DNA of 64,000 nucleotides from Malacoraja senta. Its lineage: Eukaryota. Below, piece by piece: positions 1-60,403 of the stretch. Each line of letters begins with the position of its first letter. Within the stretch, counting starts at the first letter, position 1. The stretch is taken from the NCBI GenBank assembly GCA_038087875.1, contig CM075988.1:6636001-6700000 (forward strand). The letters are read 5' to 3'. The position numbers were made by a program, and so were the translations under genes. The notes beneath the pieces are model-generated. The model saw only the letters and a list, made by a program, of their open reading frames with translations, ran no database searches and was not told the origin of the DNA.

Positions 1-2044
1 GTTTCATGCAGTTTGTGTTTTTTTTTTATCATCGTTGGCAAATTAATTTCCCTACTGGGACAAATAAAGTTCTATCGAATCGTATTGAAACGTCACCCAT
101 TCCTTCTCTCCAGAGATGCTACCTGTCCCGCTGAGTTACTCCAGCATTTTGTGTCTATCTTCGAGGCAGAGAGTGGTTCAGGACTGCTCAGGTTGCGGTG
201 GGATGGTTGTGGTGACGGAGAGCCGGCCGGCAGCCTCATCAGGTCGGTGGCAAGAGTTGGCCCAGACCCGCGAGCCCTCGGCACTCCCTCCAGCCCACAC
301 GGCAACAGGACGCACAAACCGCCCGTTGCTCTTTTGCAAACTCATTCTCTCCCTTCCCCCGCTCCCACCTCGCCCTCCCCTCCCCCCTGCAACCACAGAT
401 ACACTGAGCCGAACACACTGAATAAAAAGCTGTAGGAATTTTGAAAACTCCAGTATGAACTCAATGGCCATTGTGCTCTGTTAGGAATGTCAGCGAGCAG
501 TCAACTGTTAAATAGAGGGCCATTCAATGGCCTGGCCTATTTCCCTGAGAAGGCATTCATTTCCCAATGGCTGTGGACAATGGCCAGTATTGTGGCGTGC
601 CATGGCCTAGGGTTTTTACTTGTCCTTCTCTCTAAGGAATTCCAATACGCTGTCAATTGCTGTTAACATCTCGGCCTCTGGCAATAAAATGCAGTTATTA
701 GTTAATAAGCAGATCATTGTGGACAAACAAGGTCTCTCCAACGATCCTGGGCTGCTATTATTCCCCGCACTCGGCTTTGATTTCAGATTCTCCCCATGAT
801 TATTTTGCTTTTAACTGATTTTCATTTCCCCAGCTGCAAAACCTTTCTGAGTTTCTGCACATTTTATGAACTCCCCAGAGGTGCGGAGAATGATCTGCCA
901 CAGTGCATGGCGGATGAAAGAGGAACATAAAACCACACCCCCCCCCCCTTCCCTCCTACACCCCCCCCTCCCCCGCCTCCCACCCAGACAGAGTGTCCAG
1001 GCAGTGTGCCTGCCCCTGCTCTTCCTCTGTCGTACATCCCCTGAAGCTGCCGCCTCGCACAGGGTTACAGCTGTGCAAGCAGTCCACACACCAAGTCCAC
1101 ACTTTGGGCAGTCATGGTGGCACAGCTGGTAGAGCTGCTGGCTCACAACGCCAGAGACTTGGGTTCGATCCTGACCTCGGCCGCTGTCTGCGCGGAGCTT
1201 GCACGTTCTCCCCGTGACCGCGTGGGTTTCCTCTGGGTGCTCCGGTTTCCTCACACATCCCAAAGACGTGCGGGTTTGTAGGTCAATTGGCTTCTGTGAA
1301 ATTGTCTGTAAAATGTGTTTACTTTATTTTGGTTCATTGTCATGTGTGGAAAGCTTTATTCTTGCGGACTATCCAGTCAGTGGAAAGACTGTTTATGACT
1401 ACAACCAAGTCGTCCACAGTGTACAGATATAGAATAAAGGGAATAACGTTTAGTGCAAGATAATGTCTAGTAAAGTCTGATTAAAGATAGTCCCAGGGTC
1501 TCCAATGGGGTAGATGGTAGGTTAGGACTGCTCTCTAGTTGGTGATAGGATGGTGCAGTTGCCTGATAAAAGCTGAGAAGAAATTGTCGCTGGGAGTGGA
1601 TGAGAAAGTGGGATAGCAGAGAACTAGTGTGAATGGGTGATCAATGGTCGACTTGGTGGGCCGAAGAGCCTGTTTCCAAACTGTATCCTTTAATCAATGA
1701 AGGCAGGGATGATCAGTGACACCGGGATAGAGTAGAACACAATCTGGAGAAGGTCGGAGGTGGACGGCAGCCCTTCACCCTGGCCCTTTGCTCAGTTTTG
1801 CATCTGTGCTGGTGGATCTGAGTGCTGGTATTATCCGATATTTGAACACATTGAGCAATGTTATTATATAACACCACACGATCACAGTACAGCAGGCAAA
1901 CAGCGTCGCTCTTCTGAAAAAGCCATTTTAAACTTTGTCTACTTTCTCTGAAGAAGGGTCTCGACCCCAAGTGTCACCCATTCCTTCTCTCCAGAGATGT
2001 TGCCCGTCCCGCTGAGTTACTCCAGCATTTTGTGTCCGTCTTTC

Positions 2045-9135: not shown

Positions 9136-11961
9136 TCTACTTGTCTAATCCCAAATATATCTATACATATAAGTACTCATATATCGCAGATCTGCACATC
9201 TATGCGGGTTTGTAGGTTTATTGGACTCTGTGAAATTACCCCTAGTTTGTAGGGAGTGGGTGTGAAAGTGAGATAATAATGGAACTTGTGTGAACGGGTG
9301 ATTGATGGTCAGTGTGGACTCGGTGGGCTGAAGGGCCTGTATCCATGCTGTATATCTAATGAAACTAAGCTTCGTGTTGCAAGGCTGTATCAGCGGTGCT
9401 GCCTGTGCGGAGTTTGTACGTTCTTCCTGTGACCGCGTGGGTTTTCTCCGGGTGCTCTGGTTTCCTCCCACTGGTTTCCTCCCTTTGGCCTTCAGATTTT
9501 TAGGTTGAAAATAGACACAAATTGCTGGAATATCTAGGTGGGACAGGCAGCATCTCTGGAGAGAAGGAATGGGTGGAAAAAATCTCTCTCCAGAGATGCT
9601 GCCTGGCCCGCTGAGTTACTCCAGCATTTTGTATTTATCTTCGGAGTAAACCAGCATCTGCAGTTCCATCCTACAGGTTGTTAAGGTGATTGGCTTCTGT
9701 AAATTTGTAAATAGTCCCTGGTGTGCAGGATAGTGCTACTTGGTGGGCTGAAGGGCCTGTTTCGCGCTGTGTCTCCAAAGTCTAAAGCCATTTACATCAA
9801 GCTGACACTAGGTGGTGCAGTGTTTGGAGTGCCTCTTCCAAGGCCCAGCGATGGGCTGTGCTGATGACTTGATCCAGGGCAACTGCCTGGCTTGGTTATT
9901 GGGCCAATGCTGCCCTCTGCTGTCCTCTGTGTGAATCACAAGCTCGAATATCATCATGGCCCCTTTCCCCATTAGACTTTAGACTTTAGAGATGCAGCAT
10001 AGAAACACTCCCTCTGGCCCAACCTACAAAACCTGTACCTTTTGGATGTGGGAGGAAACCGGAGCACCCGGAGAAAACCCAACGCGGTCACAGGGAGAAC
10101 GTGCAAACTCCGTACAGACAGCACCCGTGGTCAGGATCGAACCTGGACCTCTGGCACAATGAGGCAGCAACTCTACCGCTGCGCCACTGTTGCCAGTTTC
10201 CCTGACTCACAACAGGAATGTCCCAAAGATAGACACAAAGTGCTGGAATTACTCAACTGGTCAGGCAGCGTCTCTGGATGAAATGAATGGGTGGCGTTTT
10301 GGTTCCTTAGGCGTTGCTTGGATACCTCTCAGCTCCTCAGTAGAAGATCATTCCTTCTCTGTGAACCTAGACACTGACTTTATTGCAAGGAGGTAACCAT
10401 CACAATTAAGCATCATCTCAGCCACATGCACAGATACAAAGCACACACTGTGATACGGATAACCTGTTTTTATTTAGGACATTTCATAACCTCTGGGTTT
10501 CTCAAAGTATTTTACACCAGGGACAGTTTGCACACAGCAATCTCCCGCCAACAGCAAAGGTGTTAATGAGTGGCTGGGTATTGGTTCAGGGCGGGTGGAG
10601 AGGGGAGGATGGTGTAGGAGGCGGTGTGGGGGAAGCAAGTAGGTCTGGCTGTGGCTGTGGTCCTCTATCTCTTCCTTTCATTCCGCAGGGTTGATGTAGT
10701 CGCTGCAAGGAACCAAGAACCACGGGTGGCACGGTGGCGCAGCGGGTAGAGCTGCTGCCTCGCAGCGCCAGAGGCCCTGGTTCGATCCTGACTACAGGTG
10801 CTGTCTGTGCAGAGTTTGCATGCTCTCCCTGTGACTCCGGGTGCTCCAATTACCTCCCCCATTCCAAAGATGAGCGGGTTTGTAGGTTTAATTGGCTTCT
10901 GTAAGTTACCCCTAGTGTGCAGGGACTGAAAGTGGGATAACATAGAACTAGTATAGGAGTGGTCAATGTGGACTCAGTGGGCCGAAGGGCCTGTTTCCAT
11001 CTGTATCTCTAAAGGAAACACTCCCAGGGACCACAATCGAGTCGAGGATAGAAAACAGATGTATTGGGATGATGGGCAGAGGAAATGGTGAGGGGAGAGA
11101 TGGGTGAAGGTGTTACATAGGTGGTATATAGGTGGTACATAGAAGCAATGCTGTCCCTGATTTATGTATTGGTCTTTATAACCTATTTTTTTAAAATTCT
11201 GATTATATGTTTTCTATAAATCTCTGTATGGTGTCCTTGAGACCTCGGTATAAGGCGCCCGTAAATAAAATCCATTATTATTATTATTATATGTTATCCA
11301 ACATGGAGACGCTGGCTGGTGATTTAAACCTCAGCTTGGTTTCCGTGACCTTCACTCATGCCAGGCTCAACCATCTGGGCGGCACAGTGGTGCAGCAGGT
11401 AGAGCTGTCCGGCACTGCACCACAGACCCGATTTCAATCCTGACCTCAGGTGCTGTCTGTGTGGAGTTTGCACGCTCTCCCTGCGACAGCGTGGGTTTCC
11501 TCCGGGTGCTCTGGTTTCTTCCCACATCCCAAAGACGTGCAGGTTTGTAGGTTAATTGGCCCTCTGTAAATTGCCCCTAGTGTATGGGGAGTGGACGAGC
11601 GATCGATGGTCGGCATGGACTCGATGGGCCGAGGGGCCTGTTTCCATGCTGTATTGTTCAATCAACCTTTCTTCCATTGCTGGCAAGGGTTGTCCTCAAA
11701 TGTGAAGCTCCCCAGGTGCTGCCTGACTGCAGAGCATTTGGAAAGACTTTCTCTGTTCCTGTATGTGGGGCATCATTTGCTGAAACGTGTGCAGTTAAAT
11801 CTATTAGTGCAGCTCGACCAGTGCAGCCTGGTGGACAGGAATATTCAGTGTAATTTGCAAAACAAATTGAATGCTGGTTCGTTTGAGAGTGCGGGGGGTG
11901 CAGTGTGGCGCAGTGCCCTGCCACAGAGCGGCCTCTCTCTGTATCTGGCACTCCAGCTCCA

Positions 11962-12054
11962 TCACACGCTCGTGTACAGCAGGCCCCGTAGGTGGGTCAC
12001 GTGGCACTTTGTTATTCTCACCAGCGTCACAAACTGCTGCCTCAGGCTGGTCAT
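11962..12054 (-). CDS. Mini-plakin terminal coding exon (MTSLRQQFVTLVRITKCHVTHLRGLLYTSV*)
   Basis: Acceptor tgtttctggtgcag|; compare plectin YVDLRTHYSELTTLTSQYIKFISETL. The stop falls where the rod domain would begin. Confidence 0.75.
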   Translation of the reverse strand: MTSLRQQFVTLVRITKCHVTHLRGLLYTSV

Positions 12055-15000
12055 CTGCACCAGAAACACAACACACATCAGCAACAGGCAGAGAGACCTC
12101 CCGCATGGAGGGATATGGATCACGTACTGGCAGAGGAGATCGGGTATACTTGGTATCAGGCTCGGCATAGACATTGTGGGCAGAAGGGCCTGCTCCTGTG
12201 CTCTACTGTTCTATGGTCTGTGGTTTTTTAACAGAGCAGCTCCACCAGGATGGAAGTTCAGTGATCGTGAGACTGGTCAAGGAGGGTAACCTCATCCTCG
12301 ATGACAGGAGGGAATGAGATCCACACCAGACTTCCTTCAGGAGAATATCCTGGGACCACTCGCACTACTTCCATCCTTACCTCACACTTTGGGTCTTTCC
12401 ATCTCTGGCCTTGATCACACCATCTGCCAATAAAGCCACCCACATCTGTGCCCACCTATCACTTGCCAGGCTATGTCCTGCCCTCACCTCTCTTCGAGCT
12501 TCCTGACTACAGGTGCTGTCTGTGCGGAGTTTGTACGTTCTCCCTGCGACGCCGTGGGTTTTAACCGGGTGCTCCGGTTTCCTCCCACACTCCAAAGACG
12601 TACAGGTTTGTAGGTTAATTGGCTTCAGTAAAAATTGTAAATTGTAAATTGTCCCTAGTGTGCAGGAATGTGTTTGTGTATGGAGATCGCTGGTCGGTGT
12701 AGACCGGGTGGGCTGAAGGGCTGTTTCCACTCTGTATCTCTAAAACTAAATCTGAAAACGAAAAACTTTCTAATCCCCCCACCCCCAACACAATCAGTCT
12801 GGAGAAGGGTCCCGATCTGAATCGTCACCTGTCTCCAGAGATGCTGCCTGACCCGCTGAGTTACTCCAGCACTTGGTGCTTTTCTATGGCAGAAAGCCTA
12901 TTGATTCTGCCTGGTCCAAGACACCAAAATGATCCACCAGCTGACAGCTCCCCAGCTCCCCAGCTCCCCAGCGCCACAGGGTAAGAGCGTCCGATCCATT
13001 ACGATTAGTTTACTTTAGTTTAGTTTAGACATACAGCATGGTAACTGGTCCTTCAGCCCACTGAGTCCATGCCGACCCATACACTAGCACTATCCTACAC
13101 ACTAGGGACCAAAGCCAATTAACCTGCAAACCTGTACGTCTTTGTAGTGTGAGAGGAAACCGAAGCACCCGGGGAAAACCCAAGTGGTCACGGGGAGGAC
13201 GTACAGACTCCATACAGGTGGTAAGGATGGAACCTGGGTGTCTGGCGCTGTAAGGCAGCAACTCTACTGCTGCGCCACCATGTCATGCGGTAAAGAACAG
13301 CAGAGATAAGTTATTTGAACTTTTACAAAGCAACTTGAACAGCGCACGAAACAAACCACGTCTAGAGGGGGAAGCAGAGGGCACAACGGCTGCTACCTCT
13401 CCTTGCAGGGTGTAGGTCAGCTCCGGTTTCACCGCAGAGGCAGGCTGGTGCTGTGTCATGCTCTGTTTAAACGAGGCAGCCTGGAGCTTGATTTGCTGGA
13501 AGAAAAGAAACAGAATGTGAACCAGTGGACAGAGGCACCCTGGACAGGAGATGCACTGGGTGAGTGTTTTACACAGAGTGCTGGCGGCCTGGGACACTCT
13601 GCCAGGGATGGTGGTGGAGGCAGGTATAGGTCAGAAGGTCAGAAGTGATAGGTGCAGAATTAGGCCATTCGGCCCATCAAGTCTACTCTGCTATTCAATC
13701 ATGGCTGACCCATCTCTCCCTCCTAACCCCATTCTCCTGTCTTCTCCCCATAACCCCTGACACCCGTACTAATCAAGAATGGTGCAGTTAGAATACGGAA
13801 GATAGAAAAGTACAGCATAGGAACAGGCCCTTCAGCCATCAATGTCTGTGATGTATATCCCCCATATCCATGTGCCATTGAAGGGCTGTTTTGGATGGGA
13901 TCATGGATATGCATGACATGGATGACCCGTTCACACTAGTTCCATGTTATCCCACCTTCTCATCCACTCCCTGTACGCTCAAGGCCATTTACAGAGACTG
14001 ATTAAGAGATTTCCAGCTCTTTGTTTGAAACGATGACATATTTTGAACAAATTATGAACATGAACTTTTGCATGGGTGCCATCCTGCTTATTATTTTCCT
14101 CCATTAGATGCCTAATTCACTTGTTGCCAGAAGAGGTAATGAGGTGATATGTAAGAGAGAGGGTCGACACAAAATGCTGGGGTAACTCAGCGGGACAGGC
14201 AGCATCTTTGGAGAAAAGGAATGGGTGACGTTTCGGGTCGAGACCCTTCGTCTTCAGAAATAAGAGAGAGAGAGTCATCTCGGGACCAGCCACGGTCAGC
14301 TTCAGACTCAAGCTGCTGAGTTTTTAGTTTTTAGTTTTAGTTTTAGAGATACAGCGTGGAAACAGGCCCTTCGACCCACTGTCCATGCTGACCAGTGATC
14401 ACCCATTCTATCCTGCACACTTGGGACAATTTACAGAGGCCAATTAACCTACAAACCGGCACATCTTTGGAGTGTGGGAGGAAACCGGAGCACCCGGAAA
14501 AAAATCATGGCGTCACAGGGAGAACGTGCAAACTCCGTACAGACAGCAGGGCGCTCCATACAACATTTGAGGGCTTGTCAGCCTGAAGAAGAGTTTTGAC
14601 ACGAAACGTCACCTATTCCTTTTCCCTTTGCTGCCTGACCCGCTGAGTTACTCCAGCACTTTGTGTCTGTCTTCACCCCAACGTCATGTTCAGTTCAACA
14701 CTGTTTTAACCTGGTGCATTCTGCTGTAGTGGTTTCTGCAATATCCAAACATCTTCACTGGCAAGAGAAGCTGAGAGCCTCCTTCACTTCCTCCACACCT
14801 CCACTTCTTACCTCAAAGGCACGGACACATTCACTCATCGCCCTCCAACATTTCCCCAGCTGGAGGGCAGAGAAAAAGTGATTCAGAATGACTTTAACCT
14901 GAATAAACAATTTTGCATTATTATTCCAGGAATCAAACAGATTTACCGTGAATGGAAGCGGCCTTCTACCCAACTCGTCCATGTCAAACGCAATTCCTTT

Positions 15001-18000
15001 CTGAACTAGTCCCGTTGCCCACGCCTAGTCCAGATTCATCTCAGCATATCCTATACATATACCCGCCAAAATGCCCTTTGAATGATGTTGTTACACCTGC
15101 CTCAACCAGTTTGTGTGGCAGCTTGTTCCAGACACCCACCACCCTCTTACAGAGAGCGGTTGATAATCTCAAACTCACTGCCAGAGGTGGTGGTGGAATC
15201 AGATACAATCACTGCCTTTAAGAGATATTTAGGAGAGGGACATAAATCGGTAAGGCATAGAAAGATGCAGACCTAATGTAGGCAAAGGCGATTAATGTAG
15301 ATGGTCAAAAAAGATGATGTGGACTTGGTAGAACTTTATCTGTGCTGCCGACTCTGGCTCCTATGACTCCGTGACCAAGTGTACTGTGGCCACATTTGCT
15401 GATGATACAAATAAAGATGAATCAGCAAGTTGTGAGGGAACACAGAGGGACATGGGTAGGTCACAGGAGTGAACTAGAGGTTGGCAGATGCCTTATAATG
15501 TGAGGTGGTCAACCTTGGAAGATTCAAATGTTAATTAAGGAATCTGGGCATCCCAGTGCAAGAAATACTAGCAATTAGCATGGGGATACATCAGGTGGGA
15601 ATGGAACATTGGTCTTTACTGCATGAAGTATGGTCTGTAAAAATACGGCAGTTTTGATGTATGCTCACAGGAGGCTGGTGATTCTACATCGTTTTGGTCT
15701 CGATATTTATGGAAGGGACAGTACTTGCAATGAAGGCTGTGCAGAGAAGGTTCACGAGGCTAATCCCTGGAATGTTGAGCATGGAAGAATAAGATGTGAC
15801 TACGCCATTCATAGAGGAATTGACAGAGGTTAGACTGAGAGCATGGTTCCCCTGGTGGAGGTGTCTAGAATTAGGCTGCAATGTTTCACCGACTTCAGGC
15901 TGAGATGAGGAGGAGTTTCTTCTTTTGGTGGGTCATGAGGTTTTGGAATTCTCTCTCCTGGACAGTTGGGGAAATGGAGTCATATTCAAGATAGAGAATG
16001 GTGGGCAATTACACTTCAATTGAGGCAAAGGGTGTGGAGAGCGAACAAGAATGTGGTGTTGGAGGCAAGACTGGATCAGACATGACCTTACTGAATGGAT
16101 CAGCAGACTCAAGGGGCTGACTGGCCTAATCCTGCTCCCATTGCCTATATCTATATTCATATGAACCCAGTGGACTGTATGGAGAAAATATGGTACATGC
16201 AAGTGGTACAGGCATGGCACCACATGGTAAATGCCAGCTGATACTGAGAGAAGGCCTCTATCTCTATATCCTGATAAAGGGTCTTGACCCAAAACGTCAC
16301 CTATCCCTTTCTCCAGAGGTGCTGCCTGACTCGCTGAGTTACTCCAGCATTTTGTGTCTATCTTTGCTCTAAATCCATATATTCGTCATCTCGTGTGTTA
16401 GGGGCTATTTATTTCCACCAGGTTTATCGGCAATAGCCGTGATGGATCTTGAACAATGTGCAGGTGGTTCCTCACCAACTGCAGGCAGCTGCTGACGAGA
16501 AACTCTCTCACCTTTTGGTGCCCGAGGTTCTTGATGATCACCAGCTTGCTCTCACATTGTACGGTGTGAATCCATTCCTGGAACCTGTGGGTCTGCATTA
16601 CCCAGGCGCGGAGTGGGCAGTAACAGAGCTGGTATGATTCAAGGCAGCTTGCAAAGCCGGTCAATAACTTTATCCTGAAATCCAGAATATTGTTAGAATT
16701 AATGTGCTTGGGGGCTCGGTGTAGGTGGGGTGGGGGGGGGGTGGGTGGGCAGTAAGCAGGGGATGACAGTCAGGGCAGGTTTGGGACAGTACGGTGGGCA
16801 GTGGTTGAGTTGCTGCCTTACAGCGCCAGGGACCCGGGTTCAATCCTGACTGTGGGTGCTGTCTGTACGGAGTTTGTACGTTCTTCCCATGACCTGCGTG
16901 GGTTTTCTCCGAGTGCTCCGGTTTCCTCCCACACTCCAAAGACATACAGGTTTGTAGGCTAATTGGCTTTGGTAAATCATCCCTAGAGTGTGGGATGGAA
17001 CTAGTGGACGGGTGATCATTGGTCGGCGTGGACTTGATGGGCCGAAGGGCCTGTTTCCACGTTGTGCCTCCAAAACTAAAGGTCACGTGGTGGTGGGGGT
17101 TGGGGGGGGGGGAACAGACAGGGTGACACGGAGCAGTCACGGGACAATCGGGACAGGGTCAGAAGGGGAAATAGAAAAGGCACAGAGGAATTGCCTCTTT
17201 GTCCCTCCCATTTTATGGAGGCAAATACTTCAGTGAGGCCCCCAAAGGCCACATTACTGCCACTCCCTGTGTCTCACTTGGAGTTGTCAAATATAGATGC
17301 AAGCAACTGCAGATGCTGATTAATACACAAAAGAACACAAAGTGCTGGAGTAACACAGATGTGAACTATTTGAGAGTAGCTGGACACAAGGCCAAAAGGT
17401 AGCGAGTTCTAGCTGTTGATGATGAATAAAGTTATCAAAACAGTGCCCTGTAATTATTATGAGGATATTTATAGGCAACGACGTATGCTGCATCTACAGG
17501 CGAATATTCTCTTGCGTAAGTTTGGTGCGTGTACAGATGTGGTGAAGATGTCGCTGTTTAGAGCATACTGCACACCACTCTACACTGTGCACCTGTGGTC
17601 GAACTACGGAAAGACAAGTCTGCAGAGACTAAAGGTGGCCTATAATGATGCCATGAGAACACTGTTAAGGAAACCTAGATGGTGTAGTTCTAGTAACATG
17701 TTTGTGGCTGCAGGAGTCAATACTTTAGAAGCTATCCTAAGAAATCATATGTATAAATTCATTTGCAGGATAAATGACTCTAAAAATGTAATTATCGTGG
17801 CCTTGTCAAACATAAGGTTTAGCACTAACGCTACGAATCCCAGTTGTGGAGACACTGGTATCGTTGTCTCGTTGTAGAACACTGATCTTTCTTTTTTATT
17901 CTGGATTTTAAATCATGTATTGTGTTTTTTTAATATATAATTTATGATGCTTTTATAAGTGATGTACTAGGATTTTATATGTATTTTATGGTGTTTTTAT

Positions 18001-21000
18001 ATGCAATGTATTTTTATGTAATGTTGCCCCTTGTCTGGACCTTGAGTCTGAAATAAAGTTTATTATTATTATTATTATTATTATTAGTCCCTGATTGCCC
18101 CAGAAGTGATGAACCATTGAAAGTCAATTTGTGGGTCTGGAGGTACACAAGGAGACCATATTGGACACAAAGTGTTGGTGTTATATCTTGCAATACTGCT
18201 GTATCCATTATCCTTTATCTGAAGAAGGGTTTCGGCCCGAAACGTTGCCTATTTCCTTCGCTCCATAGATGCTGCTGCACCCGCTGAGTTTCTCCAGCAT
18301 TTTTGTGTACCATCCTTTATCTATTCACTGTGGACAGTTTGATTGTAACCATGCATAGTCTTTTCTCTGACTGGATGAACGCAAACAAAAGCTTTTCACT
18401 GTGCCTTGGTACATGTGGCAATAATAAACTAAACTAATATCCCCTTCTCTGAAGAACATGAATAGGTGAGTTTTTGCATTGGGCCCCTTCTTCAGTCTGA
18501 GAAGGATCCCGACCCGAAACATCACCCATCCATGTTCTCCAGAGATGCTGCCTGACCTGCTGAGTTACTCCAGCACTCTGTGAATCATCACCTCTCCATG
18601 TTCTGCAGAGATGCTGCCTGACCTGCTGAGTTACTCCAGCACTCTGTGAAACATCACCTCTCCATGTTCTCCAGGGATGCTGCCTGTCCCACTGAGTTAC
18701 TCCAGCACTCTGTGAAACATCACCTCTCCATGTTCTCCAGGGATGCTGCCTGTCCCACTGAGTTACTCCAGCACTCTGTGAAACATCACCTCTCCATGTT
18801 CTCCAGAGATGCTGCCTGACCTGCTGAGTTACTGCAGCACGTTTTGTCTCTTTTTTTGATAAACCAGCATGCATAGTTTCTTGTGCAACAAAAGCTTTTC
18901 ACTGTACCTCGGTACACGTGACAATTAACTGAACTGAACTTGCATCTCAGGAGATCAGATAACATATTTTGAGGCCATCTGACAATGAATAAGTGCAGCA
19001 AAAAGTGAATTCGATCTGGAACAAAGACGTTTTTCCTCTATTTGGTTCGGGTTATCTGACCTGAGAAGACGTGTTGGAATCCTCACCTTTCCTCGGTGTA
19101 TGTTTTCATGGTGTGAAGCTTGCTGTGCAGGAGTTGAATCCTCTGCCTGTCTCTGGATGTGACCATGTTGTCCAACCTCATGCTCTTCTGCTGACTGTCA
19201 CCCCCTGTAGGGTGGGGAAGACTCTCGGTGCCTTTGTTGAATGCGCAGGTTTGGCCAGTCCCCTGGTCTCTCCCTGCTGCACCACACTGGCCCACAAGTC
19301 TCCACAAGCTGTCATCTACCTGGTTGATCTCTTGATGCAGATTCTGTAAAGAGAGGTGGTGACAAAGGGTTACCGCTGCTGCACCTTCACCACCTGGTCA
19401 GCAGGCGCTAGACAGACTAAATGATACTCCACGCCAATGATGACATAACGAAACACTCACCGCTCGATTCCATCAGGTCTTGGTTGCTCAGTTTATTATC
19501 TCCATTCACCCGCTCCAAATACTTGCCTACACTCAACTAATAACAATTCTTAGATAGGCACAAAATGCTGGAGTAACTCCGCAGTCATGCAGCATCTCTG
19601 GAGAAAAGGAATAGATGACGTTTCGGGTCGGGACCCTTCATCAGACTGAGAGCAATAAAACCTCATCTTGTAAAGCAGTTGACTATCACTACCACCCACA
19701 TAGTCTTTCGGGAGGGAGAATTCAGGATGTCAACTATTCTTTGCCTGAAGAAATGCTTCCCTATTTTGTCCTCTCATATATCCCCCTCTTTTCAATCAAC
19801 CCTCCCCCCCCCCGCTATCACCACCTCCCCCCCACACCAGCCCACTGTTCCCAAGTCTCTTTCCTTTCCCCCAACTTGGTTCCACCTTCATTGTTGGTGA
19901 TCATTCAAAGTCCAGTATGGTTGTCCTCCTGGTGGGTTCAGGTGGACACCTATGCGTGACATCTTTTAACGTGGGGAGCTTAGTTTAATTCAGTTTAGTT
20001 TATTGTCATGTGTAATGACGTACATTGAAACAGCTTTTGTTGCGTGCCAACCAGTTTGCGGAAAGACAATACATGCTTACAATTGTGCCGTCCACAGTGT
20101 TAAATCACAGTGTTAAGTCCACAGCCGTCCACAGTGTACAGATACATGATAAAGGGAATATAGAATGTGTGCAAGATCCATTCCAGTAGAGTCTGATTGA
20201 AGATAGTCTGAGGGTCTCCAATGAGGTAGATAGTAGGTCAGGACTGCTCTCTAGTTGTTGGTTGGATGGTTCTATTGCCTGCTAGCAGCTGGGAAGAAAC
20301 TGTCCCTGAATCTGGAGGTGTGCGGTTTCACACCTCTATACCTCTTGCCTAAGGGGAGAAGAGGGAGTGACCGGGGTGAGACTGGTCCTTGATTAAGCTG
20401 CTGGCCTTGCCGAGGCAGCCTGAAGTGCAGATGGAGTCAACGGAAGGGAAGAACCTGCCTATCACCCACAAACAGAAGATGCACACAAAATGCTGGCGTA
20501 ACTCAGCGGGACAGGCAGCATCTCTGGAGAGGAGTGGGTGACGTTTCGGGTCGACACCATTCTCCAGACCCTTCTTCTCGACACAAAACGTCACCCATTC
20601 CTTCTCTCCAGAGATGCTGCCTGTCCCACTTAAGTTACTCCAGCACTTTGTGTCTACCTTCAGGGTAAACCAGCTTCTACAGTTCCTTCCCACACACTGG
20701 GCCCCTATCCCCACCGTTCCCATCTGCCCACCATCCTTCCCTTATCTGAATCCACTCATCAGCTTCTCCTATCAGATTCCACAATCTGCAGCCCTTTGTT
20801 GAATCCTCTTATCCCCTCCCAGCCTCTGTCGCCATCTCCTTTCCTCCGTCCCCCACCTCTCTCCATCTGCCAGCTAACCTCTCCTCCCCTGGATGCACCT
20901 ATCCACCCCCACCCCTCCCCCTCATCTCTTTATACTGGCCATCTCTGGTCTAAACTCCCTGCCCTGATGCAGGGTCTCAACCAGAAATGCCCACCATCCC

Positions 21001-24000
21001 TTTGCCTCCATAGATGCCGTCTGACCTACTGTTCCTCCAGCAACTTGCTTTAGGATTCTAAATCTCAAGCTTCCCTGTTTTGCCGTGTCCGTTTTCAGGC
21101 TACCAGGATAAAGTGAGGATACGTGAATCCCGCTACTAACCCTTAATTTCTTCCTGTACATGGGGTGGTGACATTGTTGACTGTCGGATGTGCACAAGTT
21201 CGATTCCAGCAGCATCACCTTCTCCACAATCAAGGACAGTGCTCGGTAAGACTTGCTCCTTGCATCAGAGTAGCTATAAAACAATTAGAATCAGCAAAAC
21301 AACTTCCCAAAACCTTCAGCGTCGCCACAGAATTCCCATTCACGCCTGCGCTTTTTAAGTAGGGGAACCCAATGAAAGTGATCCACACTTTTAAGATGTA
21401 GGAGATGTCAAGGAGTTAGGTTTGAAACCATTGGCCTGGATTATCATAGAGTCATAGAGCACAAAACAGGCCCATCGGCCCAACTTGCCCATGCCATCCA
21501 CATGACCCATCTACGCTAGAACGTGCAAACTCCATACACACAGCACCCGTAGTCAGGATCGAACCCGGGTCTCTGGCACTGTAAGGCAGCAACTCTACTG
21601 CTGCGCCACTGTAGGCAATGAAGCACTTTTGAAGTAGAATACATGGCCAATTTGCTGAGGCATGGGAAGTCTCACAAACCACAATTACAATTAAAACACA
21701 AAGTACTTGTGCTATAACTCCATGATAAATGCTCAACTAAGAAAACTAAGCCCTAAACCAAAGTATTATCTAATTTAACACAACAACTTATAATAAATAA
21801 CTCAATTTGCGGAAAAAAATAAAAAACATCTCCCTACATATTAATTCTCTTTAAAATAAAACTAATCCTGTAGATGCAAGTATATCATTGGGGTTATCAA
21901 GTGAGCACCTCCCTTCATTGGTGTTTCATTGAGCTAGGCCCACGACACCTTGGGCAGCAACAGTTGGTTTTGGCGTCCCAGAACAAACCCCCCCTCAATA
22001 CCTGGTCTCACCACCTATGCTACCAGTATCTACTAAATAAAGGAAGCTGCAGCCAATTAGCTTACTCTAACAGATGATAACCACATCTGTCATCCTAGCC
22101 CATCATGAAGCTTGTAACACCACAAATATCACCCTTGCATGAGACTTACGCAGACTACAATTACAAAGAAATACACAAACTGCATGTCATACGATTCCTT
22201 TCTGCCCCCAACTGACACTATTTCTTCTCCACCAAATCCACCTACTGCCTTGCTCTGCTGCCTCTGGCATTTGCTTTACAGCCTGACGCAAACTCTGTCC
22301 GCAAATTCCTAGCTCTCCAAATAGCCACGTGGTTGATCTCGCTAAGAAACCTCGACAACCCACCTCTACCGGACGTAGTCTTGCTCTCCATCCCCGCTGC
22401 TCAACTTCTGCTGCCATCTCTACATATCTATGCCTTTTCCATTCATAAGCCTCATCCTTTAAGTTCTCCCAATCACAATCAATTCTATAAAATACACTAT
22501 CCACTGACTAACTGACCTTAACACTGAGGAAGGGTCTTGACCCGAAACGTCGCCTATTCCTTCACTCCATAGATGCTGCCTCACCCGCTGAGTTTCTTCA
22601 GCATTTTTGTCTACCTTCGATTTTTCCAGCATCTGCAGTTCTTTCTTAAACATAACAATATATCAGGCCTCAAACTTCAGTTTCAGGAATAGTGATGGAG
22701 AAATGATCGTTTAGTGAGATTTCAGATGTATTTCAGCTGCTCTTCTCCAATTTAGGGTTGATGGGGTTTTACACATCCAACCCTGTTTTAATATTTCATC
22801 CCAACAATTATATCATCGGCCAGTGCCGCACCCTCTGGGAAGCTTTTGGTTTTAGAGATACAGCGCAGAAACAGGCCCTTTAGCCCACCGAGTCCATGCC
22901 GACCAGCGATCACCACGCAAACACAAGGGACAATTTACAATTTTACCGGTCAATTAATCTACCAACCTGCATGTCTTTGGAGTGTGGGAGGAAACTGGAG
23001 CACCCGGGGCAAACCCACGAGGTTACTGGGCGAGCGTACAAACTCCATACAGACAGCACCTGTAGTCAGGATCGAACCCGGGTCTCTGGCACTGTAAGGC
23101 AGCAACTCTACCGCTGCGCCACCGTGCCACTCTAACTTTACAAAGAGAAGATGAGAAAGATTGAAGGGGCCTGAGGGCGTGTCACCTCCAAGATTGCTGA
23201 GGAACGTGAGCTGAAAGAGCAAAGTGAGACTTGAGAAAGAATATTGACTGGGAGTAGACAAACTGGAACTTTGGCAGCGTACACCTCCTGGGTGGATGGT
23301 TTAGAAATAAGGTATAATCCACCTCGAAGTCCATTGGGATGGGGGATGGGGACGTTTATAGACGGGTAAATAAAAGTGGCAATGAGTGCGCTGTGCACAG
23401 TTATAGTGGAATGAGAGGGACACCTGGTAGAGCCACTGTCTTGCAGCACCAAAGACCTGTGTTCACTCCTGACCTCTGGTGCTGGCTTGGTGGAGTTTGC
23501 ATGTTTTCCATGTGATCGTGTGTGTTTCCTCCAGGCGCTCCGGTTTTGTCCCACATCCCAAAGATGTGCAGTTCAATAAGCTAGGTGGCCATTACAAATT
23601 ACTTGGAGTGTTTAAGGTGAGTGATAGAACCAGTGCGGCATTGATGGGAATGTGGGGAGAATAAGAAAATTGGATTCATGTGGGATTGATGGCCAGCATG
23701 GACCCGAAGGGCTGAAAGGCCTGTTTCTGTGCTATATCCCTCTATGATTCCATGATACATGGACTTGATGAGCCAAGATGCCTATTTCTGTGTTGCACTT
23801 CAGGAATAATCCTGGGTTCAAACCTGCTTAAGATTGATCTATTTAAGATTGAGATGAATGGATTTTTAGATACCAGGGATATTAATGTAGTTTGCGCAAG
23901 TGAGATCAGCCAGGTTCTTCCGAAAAGCAGAGTAGGCTCAGAAAGCTGACAGGCCTCTTATTTATGTGTAGAAAGGAACTGCAGATGCTGGTATACACCA

Positions 24001-27000
24001 AAGATAGACATAAAGTGCTGGAGTAATTCAGCAGGTCAGGCAGCATCTCTACAGACAAAGGATGGGTGAGGTTGTGGGCTTCTTCAGACTATCTATCAGA
24101 GTCACTTATCTACTCTTATTTATGTTTACATTACAGAGGGGGGCATCACATTCTGGCATTTGCTGCTATCAGCGGATGTCCACACTTACACATACGTGGA
24201 GTGCTCACTGACCCACTCCCGCTAACTGTAACATCCCACACAATACTAACCTGCATTAGTTTCAAGTTGTGACTTGCTATATTTATCAATGATTCTCTTA
24301 CAAACCATGGCCACAGTTTCAATACTCACAGGCTCACTTCAGACGTCACAGCAATGATCCCAGGTTTACACGTCTGGTAACAAAAGAATAGTTCATTTAA
24401 AATGTGTAAGAAGGAACTGTGGATAGACACAAAGCGCTGGAGTAACTCAGCGCGTCAGGCAGCATCTCTGGAGAAAAAGGACTGGTGACGATTTGGGCAG
24501 GGACTGCAGATGCTGGTTTATACAGAAGATAGACTCAAAACGCTGAACGCAGATCAGTCTGAAGAAGGGTTCCGACCTGAAATGTCACCTATTCCTTTTC
24601 TCAAGAGATACTGCCTGACCCGCTGATTTACTCCAACATTTTGTGTCTAATTGTAATATCATTTAAAATGGCATTTTATCATTCATCATTCATCGAGAAT
24701 CATTCATCATTCATGACCAACAACCCAATTTTCTTTTCCCTCTATGCTCTTGGGTCAGGGCATGGTGGTGCAGCGGGAGGGTTGATGCCTTACAGAGCCA
24801 GAGACCCAGGTTCGATCCTGACTACGAGTGCTGTCTGTACAGAGTTTGTACGTTCTCCCTGTGACCGCGTGGGTTTTCTCCGGGTGCTCCAGTTTCCTCC
24901 CACACTCCAAAGACGTACAAGTTTGTAGGTTAACCGCTTCAGTAAAATTGTAATTTGTCCCCAAGGTGTGTAGGATAGTGTTAGTGTGTGGTGATCGTTG
25001 GTCAGTGGGGGCTCGGTGGGGTCAGTCTTTATCATCCTGGGCAAGTGTTCCAACTATGGAACCCCTGGCTGCTCTGCTTGCTGGGGACAATATGCTCATC
25101 TGCAAAACCCTTGACCCAGTTGAAAATAAAATCAGCTCACAGCACCAGCTACTGTCTGTGAGAGGAGCAGTCACATAGAGGCTGAGAGCCACGTCACCCA
25201 CTGCTAGCATCACCGTTCATGCGTAAACATCTCCAAGCACTTACCCTTCAAAGAAAAATAATGCTCATGTTAGGTTTGTGTTTAAACTCTGTTAGGTCTC
25301 TTTCCGTTTACAATGCCCTATGTCAGAGGGTGGTGAATCTGTGGAATTATTTGCCACAGAAGGCTGTAGAGGCAAACTCAGTGGATATTTTTAAGGCAGA
25401 GATAGATAGATTCTTGATTCGTACGGATGTCAGAGGTTATGGGAAGAAGGCAGGAGAATGGGGTTAGGAGGGAGAGATAGATCAGCCATGATTGAACGGC
25501 GGAGTGGACTTCACTGGGCCGAATGGCCTAAATCTGCTCCTATTCCTTATGACCTTATGACCTATGTTCCCACCTCTCTCGGATTCCACATCAGAGCAGT
25601 GAATTCCTCTCTGTTGTTGGAATATTGACTACAAATTTTGTAAAATTTACTGTATTGCAAACTTTTTAACAATTTATAATAGCAGTATTCATAAGCAAAC
25701 TTGTTACTCATAACATCATATGGCGGGAGAGGCAGGAGGGTGAGGGGTGATCTTATAGATGTGTACAAAATCATGAGTGGAATAGATCGGGTAGTCGCAC
25801 AGAGTCTTTTGACCAGGGTAAGGGAATCGAGAACCAGAGGATATATGTTTAAGGTGAGGGGGAAAAGATTTAATGGGAACCTGAGGGATAAAGTTTTTAC
25901 ACAAAGGATGGTGGATATATGGAACGAGCTGCTGGAGGAGGTAGTTGTGGTAGGTTCTATCGCCACATTTAAGGAACATTTGAACAGGTGCATGGACAGG
26001 GCAGGTTTAGAAGAATATGGGCAGGTGGGAATAGTGTAGATGGGACATGATGGTCAGCATGGGCAAGTTGGGCTGAAAGGCCTGTTTCCATGCTGTATGA
26101 TTCTATGATTAAAATCAGCCCAGGATATTTGGGCTTTTTTATTTATAGAGAATACCTATTTATGGAAACGTTATAGGAAACTTATGTAGAGAAATACAGA
26201 TTTGGCTGCAGCCTATACATAACACTACAAAGCAAACTCCCTCCAACTCAAAACAGGCTGCGTCAATCCTTTACAATTTTGGATTAATGACAGGATGAGA
26301 CGAGCTGAAGATGCTGGGCTGGCTGGCAATTGAAGCTGATCTCTTTCACTAACTTCCTGCTGTTCTCCACTAGTTTGGCCTCCATGCAACTAACGTGGGT
26401 GACTCTCCGCTGATCTCTGCAGCGTCCCAACACCTTCTTCTGGATAACTCGAAATGGCAGCGTGCCAACCGAGCTGGGAAACTTAACTCCGGGGAATTCA
26501 TTTAATTTATGGTGCACAGGAGGATGAGGGGTCACCTTATTGAGGTGCATAAAATCAAGAGAGGAATCGATCGGGTAAATGCACAGACTTTTTCCCCAGA
26601 ATAGGGGAATCAAGAACTAGAGGGCATACTGTAGGTTTACGATAGACAAAAAAAGCTGGAGAAACTCAGCGGGTGAGGCAGCATCTATGGTGCGAAGGAA
26701 TGGGCGAGACCGCTGAGACCTCGACCCGAAACGTCGCCTGTTCCTTCGCTCCATAGATGCTGCCTCATCCGCTGAGTTTCTCCAGCTTTTTTGTCTATCT
26801 TTGATTTTTCCAGCATCTGCAGTTCTTTCTTAAACATACTGTAGGTTTAAAGTGAGGGGGGGGAAGATTTAATAGGCATCTGAGGGGTAACGTTTTTTAC
26901 ACAAAGGGCGGTGGGTATGGAACAAGCAGCCAGAGGAGGTAGTTGAGGAATATACTATCATAAGTACATCTAAAAAGCATTGGACAAGTACATGGATAGG

Positions 27001-27392
27001 ATAGGTTTACAGGGATATGGGCCAAGTGTGGGCAGGTGGGGCTAGTGTAGATGAGCACATTGGTTGGTATGGGCCAGTTGGGCCGAAGGGCCTGTTTCCA
27101 TGCTGTATGACTCTATGACTCTCGATAACACTGTCCACAGCCATCAGGTTGTGGATTAGAAGGGGAGACTAGCTGGAAACAACATCTGATCAATGTTGTT
27201 TATCTTTTAACAGAGAAATTAACTTTTCCTTCGGCAAAGACCTACCTTGAAGAGCCAACGGCACAAACCAAAACTCTCGAGGACATCGAAGTAGGTGAGG
27301 AGGCTGATGACTGAGAGCACACTGAAGATGATGGCAGACCCACAGAGGTCAGCTACAGTTCCAAATAGACCCCGGAACACCAGCAGGTCCAT
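11962..27392 (-). CDS. Putative membrane-anchored mini-plakin (N-terminal TM segment + plakin-domain SR8-SR9-like repeats), about 350-365 aa, 8-9 coding exons
   Basis: Six consecutive GT-AG exons (21141-21273, 19087-19343, 16512-16674, 14812-14898, 13397-13495, 11962-12054) splice into one open frame that aligns by eye with the end of the plectin/dystonin plakin domain. Phase-compatible upstream exons at 26.4 kb and 27.3 kb supply a Kozak ATG and a hydrophobic helix. Confidence 0.75.
13397..13495 (-). CDS. Mini-plakin exon (QIKLQAASFKQSMTQHQPASAVKPELTYTLQGE)
   Basis: 99 nt, strong acceptor tttcttttcttccag|, donor GAG|gtagca; compare plectin DYELQLVTYKAQL...VIQE. Confidence 0.75.
14812..14898 (-). 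CDS. Mini-plakin exon (VKVILNHFFSALQLGKCWRAMSECVRAFE)
   Basis: 87 nt, phase 0/0, donor GAG|gtaaga; compare plectin ...KVEECQRFAKQYINAIK. An in-frame alternative acceptor lies at 14859. Confidence 0.7.
15380..16140 (+). mobile_element. Old degenerate CR1-type LINE fragment
   Basis: FADDT motif (tttgctgatgatacaaa) and a decayed 3' region. Confidence 0.65.
16512..16674 (-). CDS. Mini-plakin exon (IKLLTGFASCLESYQLCYCPLRAWVMQTHRFQEWIHTVQCESKLVIIKNLGHQK)
   Basis: 163 nt, tttcag|...AAG|gtgaga. Ungapped 54-aa match to plectin QRELEQLGRQLRYYRESADPLGAWLQDARRRQEQIQ...; the L..Y.....PL.AW.......QE.I pattern includes the spectrin-repeat Trp. Confidence 0.85.
17450..18086 (+). mobile_element. LINE 3' fragment (RT C-terminus) with AATAAA and (TTA)n tail
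   Basis: LFRAYCTPLY...LWSNY...LQRLKVAYNDAMR; the clade is not determined. Confidence 0.75.
18219..18246 (+). ncRNA. Minimal hammerhead ribozyme motif
   Basis: Identical to the 6675 core; the insert is flanked by the direct repeat ATCCTTTATCT (18210-18220, 18312-18322). Confidence 0.65.
18519..18840 (+). repeat. Tandem repeat, about 5 x 66 bp, derived from the PLE terminal repeat
   Basis: Unit acatcacctctccatgttctccag(a/g)gatgctgcctg...gagttactccagcactctgtgaa, starting at 18519/18585/18651/18717/18783. Confidence 0.92.
19087..19343 (-). CDS. Mini-plakin exon (NLHQEINQVDDSLWRL...RDRQRIQLLHSKLHTMKTYTEER)
   Basis: 257 nt, ctctctttacag|...AG|gtgagg. The end aligns with plectin RWRERVAQLLERWQAVLAQTDVR, including the split Arg codon. 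Confidence 0.8.
19617..19644 (-). ncRNA. Minimal hammerhead ribozyme motif
   Basis: CUGAUGA-A-GGGU-CCCG-ACCC-GAAA-CGUC, in the sense orientation of the mini-plakin intron. Confidence 0.65.
21141..21273 (-). CDS. Mini-plakin exon (YSDARSKSYRALSLIVEKVMLLESNLCTSDSQQCHHPMYRKKLR)
   Basis: 133 nt, ttttatag|...AGG|gttagt, phase 2 to 0, like the plectin LKTISLVIRG...KASLK exon (recalled). Confidence 0.7.
22187..22480 (-). mobile_element. RLE-type (HERO/NeSL-like) LINE 3' fragment
   Basis: EAYEWKRHRY...GWRARLRPVEVGCRGF restriction-like endonuclease motif. Confidence 0.8.
22524..22551 (+). ncRNA. Minimal hammerhead ribozyme motif
   Basis: CUGAGGA-A-GGGU-CUUG-ACCC-GAAA-CGUC. Confidence 0.6.
22845..23129 (-). 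mobile_element. HE1/V-SINE-like SINE, well preserved
   Basis: ggcacggtggcgcagcggtagagttgctgccttacag...ggttcgatcc head, full body and tail. Confidence 0.85.
23137..23210 (-). CDS. Mini-plakin optional exon candidate (LTFLSNLGGDTPSGPFNLSHLLFV)
   Basis: Strong acceptor ctttgctctttcag|, donor AA|gttaga (phase 0 to 2). It would bridge donor 26395 to acceptor 21273 in frame. Confidence 0.25.
24352..25560 (+). repeat. Dispersed duplication, copy 2
   Basis: See 5924-7570; lacks about 0.45 kb that is present in copy 1. Confidence 0.9.
26354..26439 (-). CDS. Mini-plakin putative exon 2 (KKVLGRCRDQRRVTHVSCMEAKLVENSR)
   Basis: Phase-0 acceptor atccag| matches the previous donor. Donor AA|gttagt (26354, phase 2) joins 21273 in frame. 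Alternative donor CAC|gttagt at 26395 (phase 0). Confidence 0.45.
26640..26834. mobile_element. Short palindromic PLE-terminus insertion with 15-bp TSD, nested in a CR1 fragment
   Basis: Inverted arms; flanked by CATACTGTAGGTTTA (26625-26639, 26835-26849). Confidence 0.8.
27246..27392 (-). CDS. Mini-plakin putative first coding exon (MDLLVFRGLFGTVADLCGSAIIFSVLSVISLLTYFDVLESFGLCRWLFK)
   Basis: Strong Kozak GCCATGG at 27392 (alternative in-frame ATG at 27407). Acceptor cttttctcgtcag| at 27462, donor AAG|gtagg, GC3-rich codons, about 20-aa hydrophobic stretch. Confidence 0.6.
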
Positions 27393-27527
27393 GGCGAGGA
27401 ACAGCATGGGGCAGTCACAAAGAGGCCAGGCGGCCACTCGAGCTGAGAGCGAGGAATTCACTCTGACGAGAAAAGTATACAGTTGAAATCTCTCAGCTAT
27501 CCTTTACTGAACACTCTTATCCCTTGT

Positions 27528-36485: not shown

Positions 36486-58205
<21,720 letters not shown>

Positions 58206-60203: not shown

Positions 60204-60403
60204 NNNNNNNNNNNNNNNNNNNNNNNNNNNNNNNNNNNNNNNNNNNNNNNNNNNNNNNNNNNNNNNNNNNNNNNNNNNNNNNNNNNNNNNNNNNNNNNNN
60301 NNNNNNNNNNNNNNNNNNNNNNNNNNNNNNNNNNNNNNNNNNNNNNNNNNNNNNNNNNNNNNNNNNNNNNNNNNNNNNNNNNNNNNNNNNNNNNNNNNNN
60401 NNN
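60204..60403. other. Assembly gap (200 N)
   Basis: Run of N. Confidence 1.

Follow-up and report, generated by a model that had tools for sequence, protein, structure and literature searches.

Among the known systems with which the gene reported here can be compared are the plakins, which are giant cytoskeletal linkers, and the nesprins, which are tail-anchored by a C-terminal KASH domain. The gene lies on the minus strand of a 64,000-nucleotide stretch of the genome of the skate Malacoraja senta (contig CM075988.1, positions 6,636,001 to 6,700,000; hereafter the window) and encodes a small protein in which an N-terminal hydrophobic anchor precedes two predicted spectrin repeats resembling the eighth and ninth repeats (SR8 and SR9) of plectin and MACF1. 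It is not a new kind of system: public gene models exist, and the locus is very likely the orthologue of LOC116991216 of Amblyraja radiata, an annotated and conserved but uncharacterised gene of jawed vertebrates. According to the excerpted text of a comparative study of plakin genes, mammals have seven plakins, MACF1CTL is an eighth member that was lost in placentals, and EVPLL is a possible ninth (PMC8782857). Excerpts of an account of plectin place its rod in a single exon, exon 31, and describe its isoform 1b as held in the outer membrane of mitochondria by a short sequence at the N-terminus (PMC8468861). In Caenorhabditis elegans, as excerpted from a preprint, deletion of SR8 from VAB-10 is nearly silent alone, and together with the loss of pak-1 it is synthetic-lethal, with collapse of the hemidesmosomes (bioRxiv 10.1101/681072).

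With plectin and MACF1 the skate protein shares the two-bundle fold of SR8-SR9 (predicted here) and the invariant tryptophan and QE motif of SR9 helix A. It has two spectrin repeats, whereas they have nine; the identity is about 15-19%, and where they carry SH3, actin-binding, rod, plakin-repeat and GAR modules it has an N-terminal hydrophobic anchor instead, ending where the exon-31 rod of plectin begins. Plectin 1b likewise presents a short N-terminal membrane anchor on a plakin-type protein, but it is a full-length cross-linker made from an alternative first exon of PLEC, whereas the skate protein comes from a separate gene and has two repeats only. A precedent for plakin-derived genes with a partial architecture that are missing from some vertebrate lineages is provided by MACF1CTL and EVPLL. 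The former matches the C-terminal part of MACF1, the latter envoplakin; in the excerpts of the comparative study neither is described as a membrane-anchored SR8-SR9 protein, and a two-repeat anchored gene goes unmentioned (PMC8782857).

The gene was drawn to attention by an earlier note, made from the letters of the window, which proposed six minus-strand exons between 21273 and 11962 encoding only plakin-type spectrin repeats. All six are present at exactly the proposed coordinates (Table 1), with AG before every exon (6/6) and GT after each of the internal ends (5/5); joined, with the phases that the note gave, they form a single open frame of 276 codons that closes with a TGA at 11964-11962. 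A search with the 54-residue exon (coding exon 5) recovered P0001, a protein of 362 residues that is 89% identical and is encoded on a 1584-nt Logan contig, and a tblastn search of the window with P0001 matched each of the six. Because this independently assembled protein matches every proposed exon, the frame is not a chance one: the gene is real, and the exon observation lies far beyond chance.

Counted from the 3' end, the six exons cover three quarters of a larger gene; the first of them begins mid-codon. The idea that the gene encodes spectrin repeats only had to be given up. The same tblastn search revealed two further coding exons upstream, one within a match at 27461-27243 (E 5.3e-38) and another, shorter, that ends at 24330, where 15 residues, TCKPGIIAVTSEVSL, are matched with 15/15 identities; together they encode a conserved hydrophobic N-terminal anchor. 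The full model comprises eight coding exons with 1038 nt and 345 codons, spread over 15.4 kb of the minus strand, and its seven introns of 1316-3056 nt are all of the GT-AG type, with 14/14 splice sites canonical and phases compatible throughout. Coding exon 1 contains two start codons, ATG at 27407 and ATG at 27392, the second being the one conserved with sharks (MDLL...).

The two repeats find a specific counterpart in the plakin domain. In a phmmer search of the PDB with P0001, the lone distinct chain at E ≤ 10 was plectin SR7-SR9 (5j1i; E 1.7e-7, residues 177-352 against 187-363). A profile built from 21 family members matched the same chain at E 9.5e-21 (77.5 bits, profile 89-314 against chain 131-365, which is the SR8-SR9 part), the next match standing at E 0.21; a PDB search with the 54-residue exon alone gave no match at E ≤ 10. 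As plakin comparators we used six long sequences representing five distinct proteins (two are near-identical plectin isoforms), all of them MACF1 or plectin segments. Each holds one site at which the profile scores 54-73 bits, while the other 27 of the 33 envelopes reach at most 4.2 bits. This single high-scoring site per plakin makes the match position-specific rather than a generic spectrin-repeat likeness, and the sequence comparisons support specific homology of the repeats to SR8 and SR9, the last two plakin-domain repeats of plectin and MACF1.

Beyond the two repeats (about residues 70-344) the family proteins hold only the anchor and short tails. The skate protein terminates within about 10 residues of the crystallised end of SR9, with the TGA following SR9 helix C, and the RefSeq models and Logan open reading frames (ORFs) stop at the same place. 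Pfam scans found no SH3, CH-type actin-binding, plakin-repeat or GAR module in any family member (0/21). Thus, of the traits by which plakins (plectin, MACF1, dystonin, desmoplakin, envoplakin and periplakin) are recognized, the homology is present, whereas the multi-repeat domain with an SH3 module inside SR5, a cytoskeleton-binding module and a rod behind the plakin domain are lacking; the product is a plakin-domain derivative, not a plakin by the defining architecture of that family. The earlier note had seen in these exons a strongly diverged plakin paralogue that keeps SR8-SR9 and stops at the start of the rod, and the two 5j1i matches together with the stop after SR9 bear this out. Its ungapped alignment of the 54-residue exon to plectin, with the next three exons following in order, was reproduced by HMMER against 5j1i, and its failure to find CH, SH3, rod or plakin-repeat domains agrees with the Pfam scans, in which no member reaches any cutoff. 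Its further suggestion, that the exons resemble the last plakin-domain exons of PLEC and DST in size and phase, is a conjecture.

The window product is closest to proteins of other skates: 314/344 aligned residues (91.3%) are identical to A. radiata LOC116991216, and 304/344 (88.4%) to Leucoraja erinacea LOC129712432. It shares with these RefSeq counterparts its length, anchor, repeats and C-terminal motif, and departs from them over codons 1-13 of coding exon 6. P0001 sits in a 90%-identity cluster of 22 members; the 15 that are listed comprise 13 Logan contigs and two RefSeq proteins of 344 residues ("uncharacterized protein LOC129712432" and "LOC116991216"). All 13 listed contigs, 1400-1602 nt long, carry the whole 362-residue ORF without introns, and the window product is 88% identical to such ORFs. 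The ORF is split over 15.4 kb in the window and continuous on contigs of about 1.5 kb; we therefore infer that spliced transcripts exist in related skates. Of the traits of the orthologue group, the window gene has the length of about 300-400 residues, the N-terminal anchor, two SR8-SR9-like repeats and the motifs W...QE..H...C and C-x3-H-L, but not the acidic stretch in SR9 helix B of the chondrichthyan members.

Contrary to the earlier note, which had called the gene hidden and knew of no such vertebrate gene, public models (RefSeq/UniRef) exist in at least 20 species under names such as "uncharacterized protein LOC...", "plectin-like" or "MACF1-like", including LOC103180288 of Callorhinchus milii and "plectin-like isoform X1/X2" of Heptranchias perlo. 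Literature searches at the level of titles and abstracts returned no paper on the gene, and six of its LOC identifiers are absent from the literature searched. The family may already be curated, as a Pfam label, PF27015, is precomputed on four members (P0001, P0002, P0004 and P0025).

The distribution of the family was sampled with a profile of four chondrichthyan proteins, run with HMMER against 1.84 billion representatives at E ≤ 1e-3. The 23 matches consist of six small chondrichthyan proteins (the skate cluster, Heptranchias, Cetorhinus/Carcharodon, Pristiophorus, Rhincodon and Callorhinchus), 13 small osteichthyan proteins of 191-396 residues (from the reedfish Erpetoichthys, which is a bichir; the lungfish Protopterus; two salamanders and nine frogs), and four long plakins or fragments thereof, two MACF1-like, one plectin b and one unnamed protein of 2881 residues. 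No small teleost or amniote member appeared in this search, the profile of which was chondrichthyan-only and in which frog members were already as weak as 1e-4. A homologue search with the 21-member alignment returned six matches among 5615 candidates and added one protein (P0056). Several shark models, namely the Pristiophorus isoforms P0021, P0004 and P0023, Rhincodon P0024 and the lamnid P0003/P0020, have alternative or truncated C-termini without SR9 helix C; they may be isoforms, or model errors caused by intron read-through.

In a maximum-likelihood tree of 183 shared columns, with the root assumed on the plakins, a branch supported at 100/100 splits the 21 small proteins from the five plakin segments. 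Within the former the osteichthyans group at 99/95 and the chondrichthyans weakly (64/12), the inner order being broadly that of the species. The simplest reading of the tree is a single origin before the chondrichthyan-osteichthyan split. The family would then have arisen before cartilaginous and bony vertebrates separated, by partial duplication of a plakin gene and the addition of a new membrane-anchor exon.

Structure prediction had been recommended by the earlier note, which expected plakin-type spectrin repeats. AlphaFold2 (AF2) models of the A. radiata orthologue and of the lungfish member (Table 1) both show a long N-terminal helix and a disordered linker, followed by helices A, B, C+A', B' and C'; the lungfish model has one extra helix at 356-376. 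This predicted pattern supports two three-helix bundles joined by a continuous helix, the plan of tandem spectrin repeats, in which a bundle measures about 105-120 residues. Foldseek retrieved 5j1i_B as the best match of both models (A. radiata E 3.3e-5, template-modelling (TM) score 0.53; lungfish E 1.3e-5), and VIA-align superposed residues 70-343 of the A. radiata model on plectin 1112-1371 with Z 16.9 and a root-mean-square deviation of 3.1 Å over 228 residues. The top structural matches of both models are without exception two-repeat spectrin-type structures. Two structure-atlas searches gave generic spectrin-repeat neighbours only, at the level of leads, and neither showed PF27015. The B-C loop of SR8 carries a disordered insert, some 35 residues long, in chondrichthyans only; in the A. 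radiata model the predicted local distance difference test (pLDDT) falls below 50 at 139-171, and osteichthyan members are without the insert. A homodimer prediction with two copies of residues 66-344 of the A. radiata protein (P0006), run without controls, returned "no answer" with a score of 0.00.

Nesprin-3 and nesprin-4 likewise combine a few spectrin repeats with one transmembrane helix, and nesprins rank among the closest in structural comparison (TM 0.60 by query in the atlas; nesprin-2G Z 15.4). Their anchor is C-terminal, whereas that of the skate protein is N-terminal, and no sequence match to nesprins was obtained, plectin alone being matched in the PDB. With nesprin-2G so close behind 5j1i, the predicted structures support tandem spectrin repeats, and it is the sequence match that supports their identity as plakin SR8-SR9.

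A feature specific to the family is a quartet of histidines and cysteines in SR9. In the numbering of the A. radiata protein, H235 (21/21 members) and C239 (20/21) lie at the end of helix A, and C331 and H335, each present in 19/19 members with a complete C-terminus, lie in helix C. They are among the most conserved columns of the family and are encoded in the window by exons 16512-16674 and 11962-12054; the window copy keeps all four, and indeed W, Q, E, H, C, C, H, L and L of the two motifs are all present. In the plakin segments (5/5) the four places are taken by Q, T/I, Q and Y/F. The spacing H-x3-C ... C-x3-H suggests a candidate metal site or staple between helices A and C.

The anchor is similarly widespread: a 19-residue segment with a mean Kyte-Doolittle hydropathy of at least 1.6 lies near the N-terminus of 18/19 sequences, the exception being a 301-residue Ascaphus model with a later start. 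In the window product it occupies residues 25-43, with a maximum of 2.15 and a net flank charge of 0 before and +2 after the segment. In four anuran members (P0033, P0035, P0055 and P0056) the anchor is preceded, right at the start of the protein, by another hydrophobic segment, perhaps a signal peptide or an additional membrane span. On these sequence features the product would be a single-pass membrane protein with cytosolic spectrin repeats.

In one place the window copy departs from its family. The first 13 codons of coding exon 6 (14898-14860, minus strand) read VKVILNHFFSALQ, which matches no orthologue, whereas 15/15 other skate sequences have (R/S)(I/V)VEEIEEKAL(E/Q) at this position. 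KRIVEEIEE is invariant in all chondrichthyans of one alignment (A1), and plakins have a similar acidic stretch; where chondrichthyan SR9 helix B has (R/S)(I/V)VEEIEE, the window copy has VKVILNHFF. The minus strand of the window encodes no 7-mer that comes within two mismatches of VEEIEEK, and the flanking introns hold no motif-like 12-mer. A microexon carrying the motif was rejected, as none is encoded elsewhere in the window; so were a frameshift pair and a small inversion, given that the other frames and the reverse complement of 14898-14860 yield stops or unrelated peptides, and replacement by a repeat or transposon of the window, the nearest repeat copy ending at about 14952.

The sequence at this exon boundary offers a possible explanation. 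Of the 20 bases upstream of 14859, 18 are pyrimidines, against 11/20 before 14898, and the odd stretch itself resembles a polypyrimidine tract followed by CAG. The acceptor at 14859 is much the stronger, and the 5' boundary of coding exon 6 is therefore uncertain; use of 14859 would be in frame and skip 13 codons, and both readings of the exon stay open. It is plausible that the 5' part of exon 6 was deleted and that splicing now takes place at 14859, with in-frame loss of 12 conserved residues. Alternatively, the 13 foreign residues may be translated as a real replacement, or the stretch may be an assembly error.

Four other explanations of the locus were weighed against that of an intact orthologue with cytosolic repeats. 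An open frame assembled by chance out of intergenic DNA rich in repeats would have been conceivable, since the introns are full of elements resembling short interspersed elements (SINEs) and a free choice of splice sites often yields an ORF, but its probability is now negligible: it is already refuted by the independent protein that matches every exon, at E down to 2.5e-49, and by orthologues from chimaera to frogs. Scarcely more credible is that a large conventional plakin gene extends outside the window and that the exons are one of its internal or alternative parts, as the automatic NCBI names "plectin-like" and "MACF1-like" in some species might suggest. The 13 listed contigs and the RefSeq models of the two skates run from the anchor exon to the same stop within 344-362 residues, and the small proteins are parted from the plakins by the fully supported branch of the tree. 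The surroundings speak against it too, as CHEK1 lies next to the gene upstream, in the same orientation, with its last coding ORF ending at 36489, and the 11.9 kb downstream give only chance-level tblastn matches to P0001 and no plakin-like frame.

The other two explanations accept the family and concern the copy or its topology. The window copy could be damaged, i.e. a young unitary pseudogene or an impaired allele in which the middle of SR9 helix B has been removed or scrambled; we regard this as unlikely, though less so than the other three. The motif common to all 15 other skate sequences is replaced by VKVILNHFFSALQ and is encoded neither elsewhere on the minus strand of the window nor in the flanking introns, the pyrimidine-rich acceptor makes an in-frame skip of 13 codons as likely as translation, and the lineage has 21 private residues (8 of them inside the anomaly) against 7 in A. 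radiata. Yet all eight exons are open, none of the 14 splice sites departs from the canonical form, the copy retains the His/Cys quartet together with the invariant tryptophan, both readings of exon 6 stay in frame, and an assembly error is possible; moreover, the 13 private residues outside the anomaly are no clear excess over 7, the changes being mostly conservative. Improbable, and clearly more so than damage, is that the repeats are luminal or extracellular; the N-terminal segment would then be a signal peptide or type II anchor, and the cysteines would be disulfide-bonded in a secreted or surface protein. The near-invariance of the family-specific cysteines (C239 in 20/21, C331 in 19/19 complete C-termini) and the additional signal-peptide-like segment of several frog members would fit such a topology. 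However, next to each cysteine, at i+/-4, stands a histidine, an arrangement better suited to a metal site than to a disulfide, a frog signal peptide followed by the second hydrophobic segment would again leave the C-terminal part cytosolic, and the skate proteins are more positive after the segment than before it. To our knowledge, all plakin-domain spectrin repeats are cytoplasmic.

The locus follows CHEK1 tail-to-head on the same strand, with about 9 kb between the coding regions. The presence of CHEK1, as named in the earlier note, was corroborated by the ORF at 52483-52761 (-), which matches Chk1 kinase chains in the PDB at E 3e-35; two further ORFs at 39419-39583 and 36489-36623 (-), read by eye against the CHK1 C-terminus, we take to encode the C-terminal part. 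A CHEK1 intron holds a Tc1/mariner-type transposase remnant at 44088-44756 (+) (HTH_Tnp_Tc3_2, E 1.1e-13), adjoined by an ORF with a weak match to the helix-turn-helix domain of Sleeping Beauty, and a 200-N assembly gap (60204-60403) adjoins G+C-rich sequence close to where CHEK1 has its 5' end. Within the anchored gene itself, the intron between coding exons 4 and 5 contains, at about 18560-18830 (-), a unit of about 60 nt that is repeated head to tail in some four copies. This unit includes a SINE-like core, GTGCTGGAGTAACTCAG...GGCAGCATC, which recurs in most introns of the gene. An open frame of 106 codons at 22190-22507 (-), in the intron that follows coding exon 2, is without a Pfam match; it may be part of a retroelement ORF.

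Table 1. Coding exons of the anchored two-repeat gene, CHEK1 kinase-domain frames and predicted helices. Window coordinates for DNA features, residue numbers for models; E values are from tblastn with P0001.
Feature	Positions	Strand	Size and phase	Remarks
Coding exon 1	27246..27407	-	162 nt, phase 0-0	Donor AAG|gtaggt; hydrophobic N-terminal anchor; E 5.3e-38
Coding exon 2	24330..24373	-	44 nt, phase 0-2	Acceptor ttaccag|, donor CCT|gtgagt; linker past the anchor
Coding exon 3 (first of the six)	21141..21273	-	133 nt, phase 2-0	SR8-like helix A and start of helix B (helices 72-96 and 106-141 of the A. radiata model); E 1.4e-19
Coding exon 4 (second)	19087..19343	-	257 nt, phase 0-2	Remaining SR8 helix B, disordered insert, SR8 helix C; E 2.5e-49
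Coding exon 5 (third)	16512..16674	-	163 nt, phase 2-0	SR9 helix A, invariant Trp, QE..H...C motif; ungapped against plectin; E 7.5e-30
Coding exon 6 (fourth)	14812..14898	-	87 nt, phase 0-0	SR9 helix B; tblastn aligns only 14868-14812; E 6.3e-6
Coding exon 7 (fifth)	13397..13495	-	99 nt, phase 0-0	End of SR9 helix B and B-C loop; E 4.6e-13
Coding exon 8 (sixth)	11962..12054	-	93 nt (90 nt + TGA)	SR9 helix C, C-x3-H-L motif; protein end; E 3.4e-12
CHEK1 kinase-domain ORFs	56197-56481, 55580-55729, 55143-55304, 52483-52761	-		
AF2 model, A. radiata orthologue	Anchor helix 2-45; repeat helices 72-96, 106-141, 176-236, 242-294, 307-343			pLDDT 77.0
AF2 model, lungfish member	Anchor helix 22-71; repeat helices 99-118, 127-162, 167-230, 236-287, 300-341			pLDDT 79.5

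Building on the gene structure, the homology, the predicted fold and the intron-free contigs of related species, we propose a way in which the protein might work. Its N-terminal helix would insert in a cellular membrane and leave the C-terminal part in the cytosol, so that a short stiff rod of two repeats (about 280 soluble residues) would be attached to the membrane behind a short disordered linker. Such a rod could serve as a docking platform or spacer for proteins that bind the SR8-SR9 face, or it could compete for the partners of the giant plakins, and the His/Cys quartet may hold a metal ion or otherwise staple SR9. It would not be a cytoskeletal cross-linker: because every cytoskeleton-binding module of the true plakins is absent, the protein should not cross-link filaments alone. 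That the gene product is a membrane-attached rod presenting an SR8-SR9 surface is our tentative interpretation, one that may well turn out wrong.

Several observations weigh against this interpretation or parts of it. Neither the six exons (0/6) nor the family members (0/21) reach the Pfam gathering cutoffs, including those of PF00435 and the newer plakin and spectrin models, and the six single exons and P0001 give chance-level Pfam matches or none at E up to 10; the assignment to spectrin and plakin repeats therefore rests on the PDB sequence match and the predicted structures. The profile search advised by the earlier note thus succeeded in part, with plectin SR7-SR9 recovered from the PDB at both E values given above and no Pfam family at cutoff. 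Among the MACF1-like and plectin sequences compared, neither kind stands out as the closest relative, the former scoring 54-73 bits and the latter 58-77 bits, and the Z of 16.9 for 5j1i is only modestly above that of nesprin-2G, such values being common for helical bundles. The support for spliced transcripts comes from related skates; among the 19 sequencing runs listed for 11900-21400 of the window, none is given as RNA. The orientation in the membrane is weakly based, as the flank charges differ from one orthologue to another, and like it the insertion in a membrane, the partners and the function are things that we infer. Finally, the window copy may be impaired: its coding exon 6 is without a motif that is invariant in other chondrichthyans, and 13 substitutions outside this anomaly are private to its lineage, compared with 7 in A. 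radiata.

A bolder version of our interpretation is that the family is an ancient, unrecognised branch of the plakins in which the His2Cys2 quartet of SR9 binds zinc or another metal, the protein tethers the SR8-SR9 surface of the giant plakins to a specific membrane or competes with it there, and the gene was lost in teleosts and amniotes. Taken as a whole this is doubtful; if true, it would provide the first metal-stapled spectrin repeat. Likewise, if the gene was truly lost from teleosts and amniotes, it would be a clean case of lineage-specific loss. For annotation, the locus can be named as the orthologue of LOC116991216, with the anomaly of exon 6 flagged. As to the plakins themselves, the existence of a small anchored gene that, of the plakin domain, retains SR8-SR9 only and is intact in cartilaginous and bony vertebrates alike suggests an independent function for SR8-SR9, and the genetics of the SR8 deletion in VAB-10 hint in the same direction. 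With about 280 soluble residues, the family would offer a compact handle for finding the partners of SR8-SR9.

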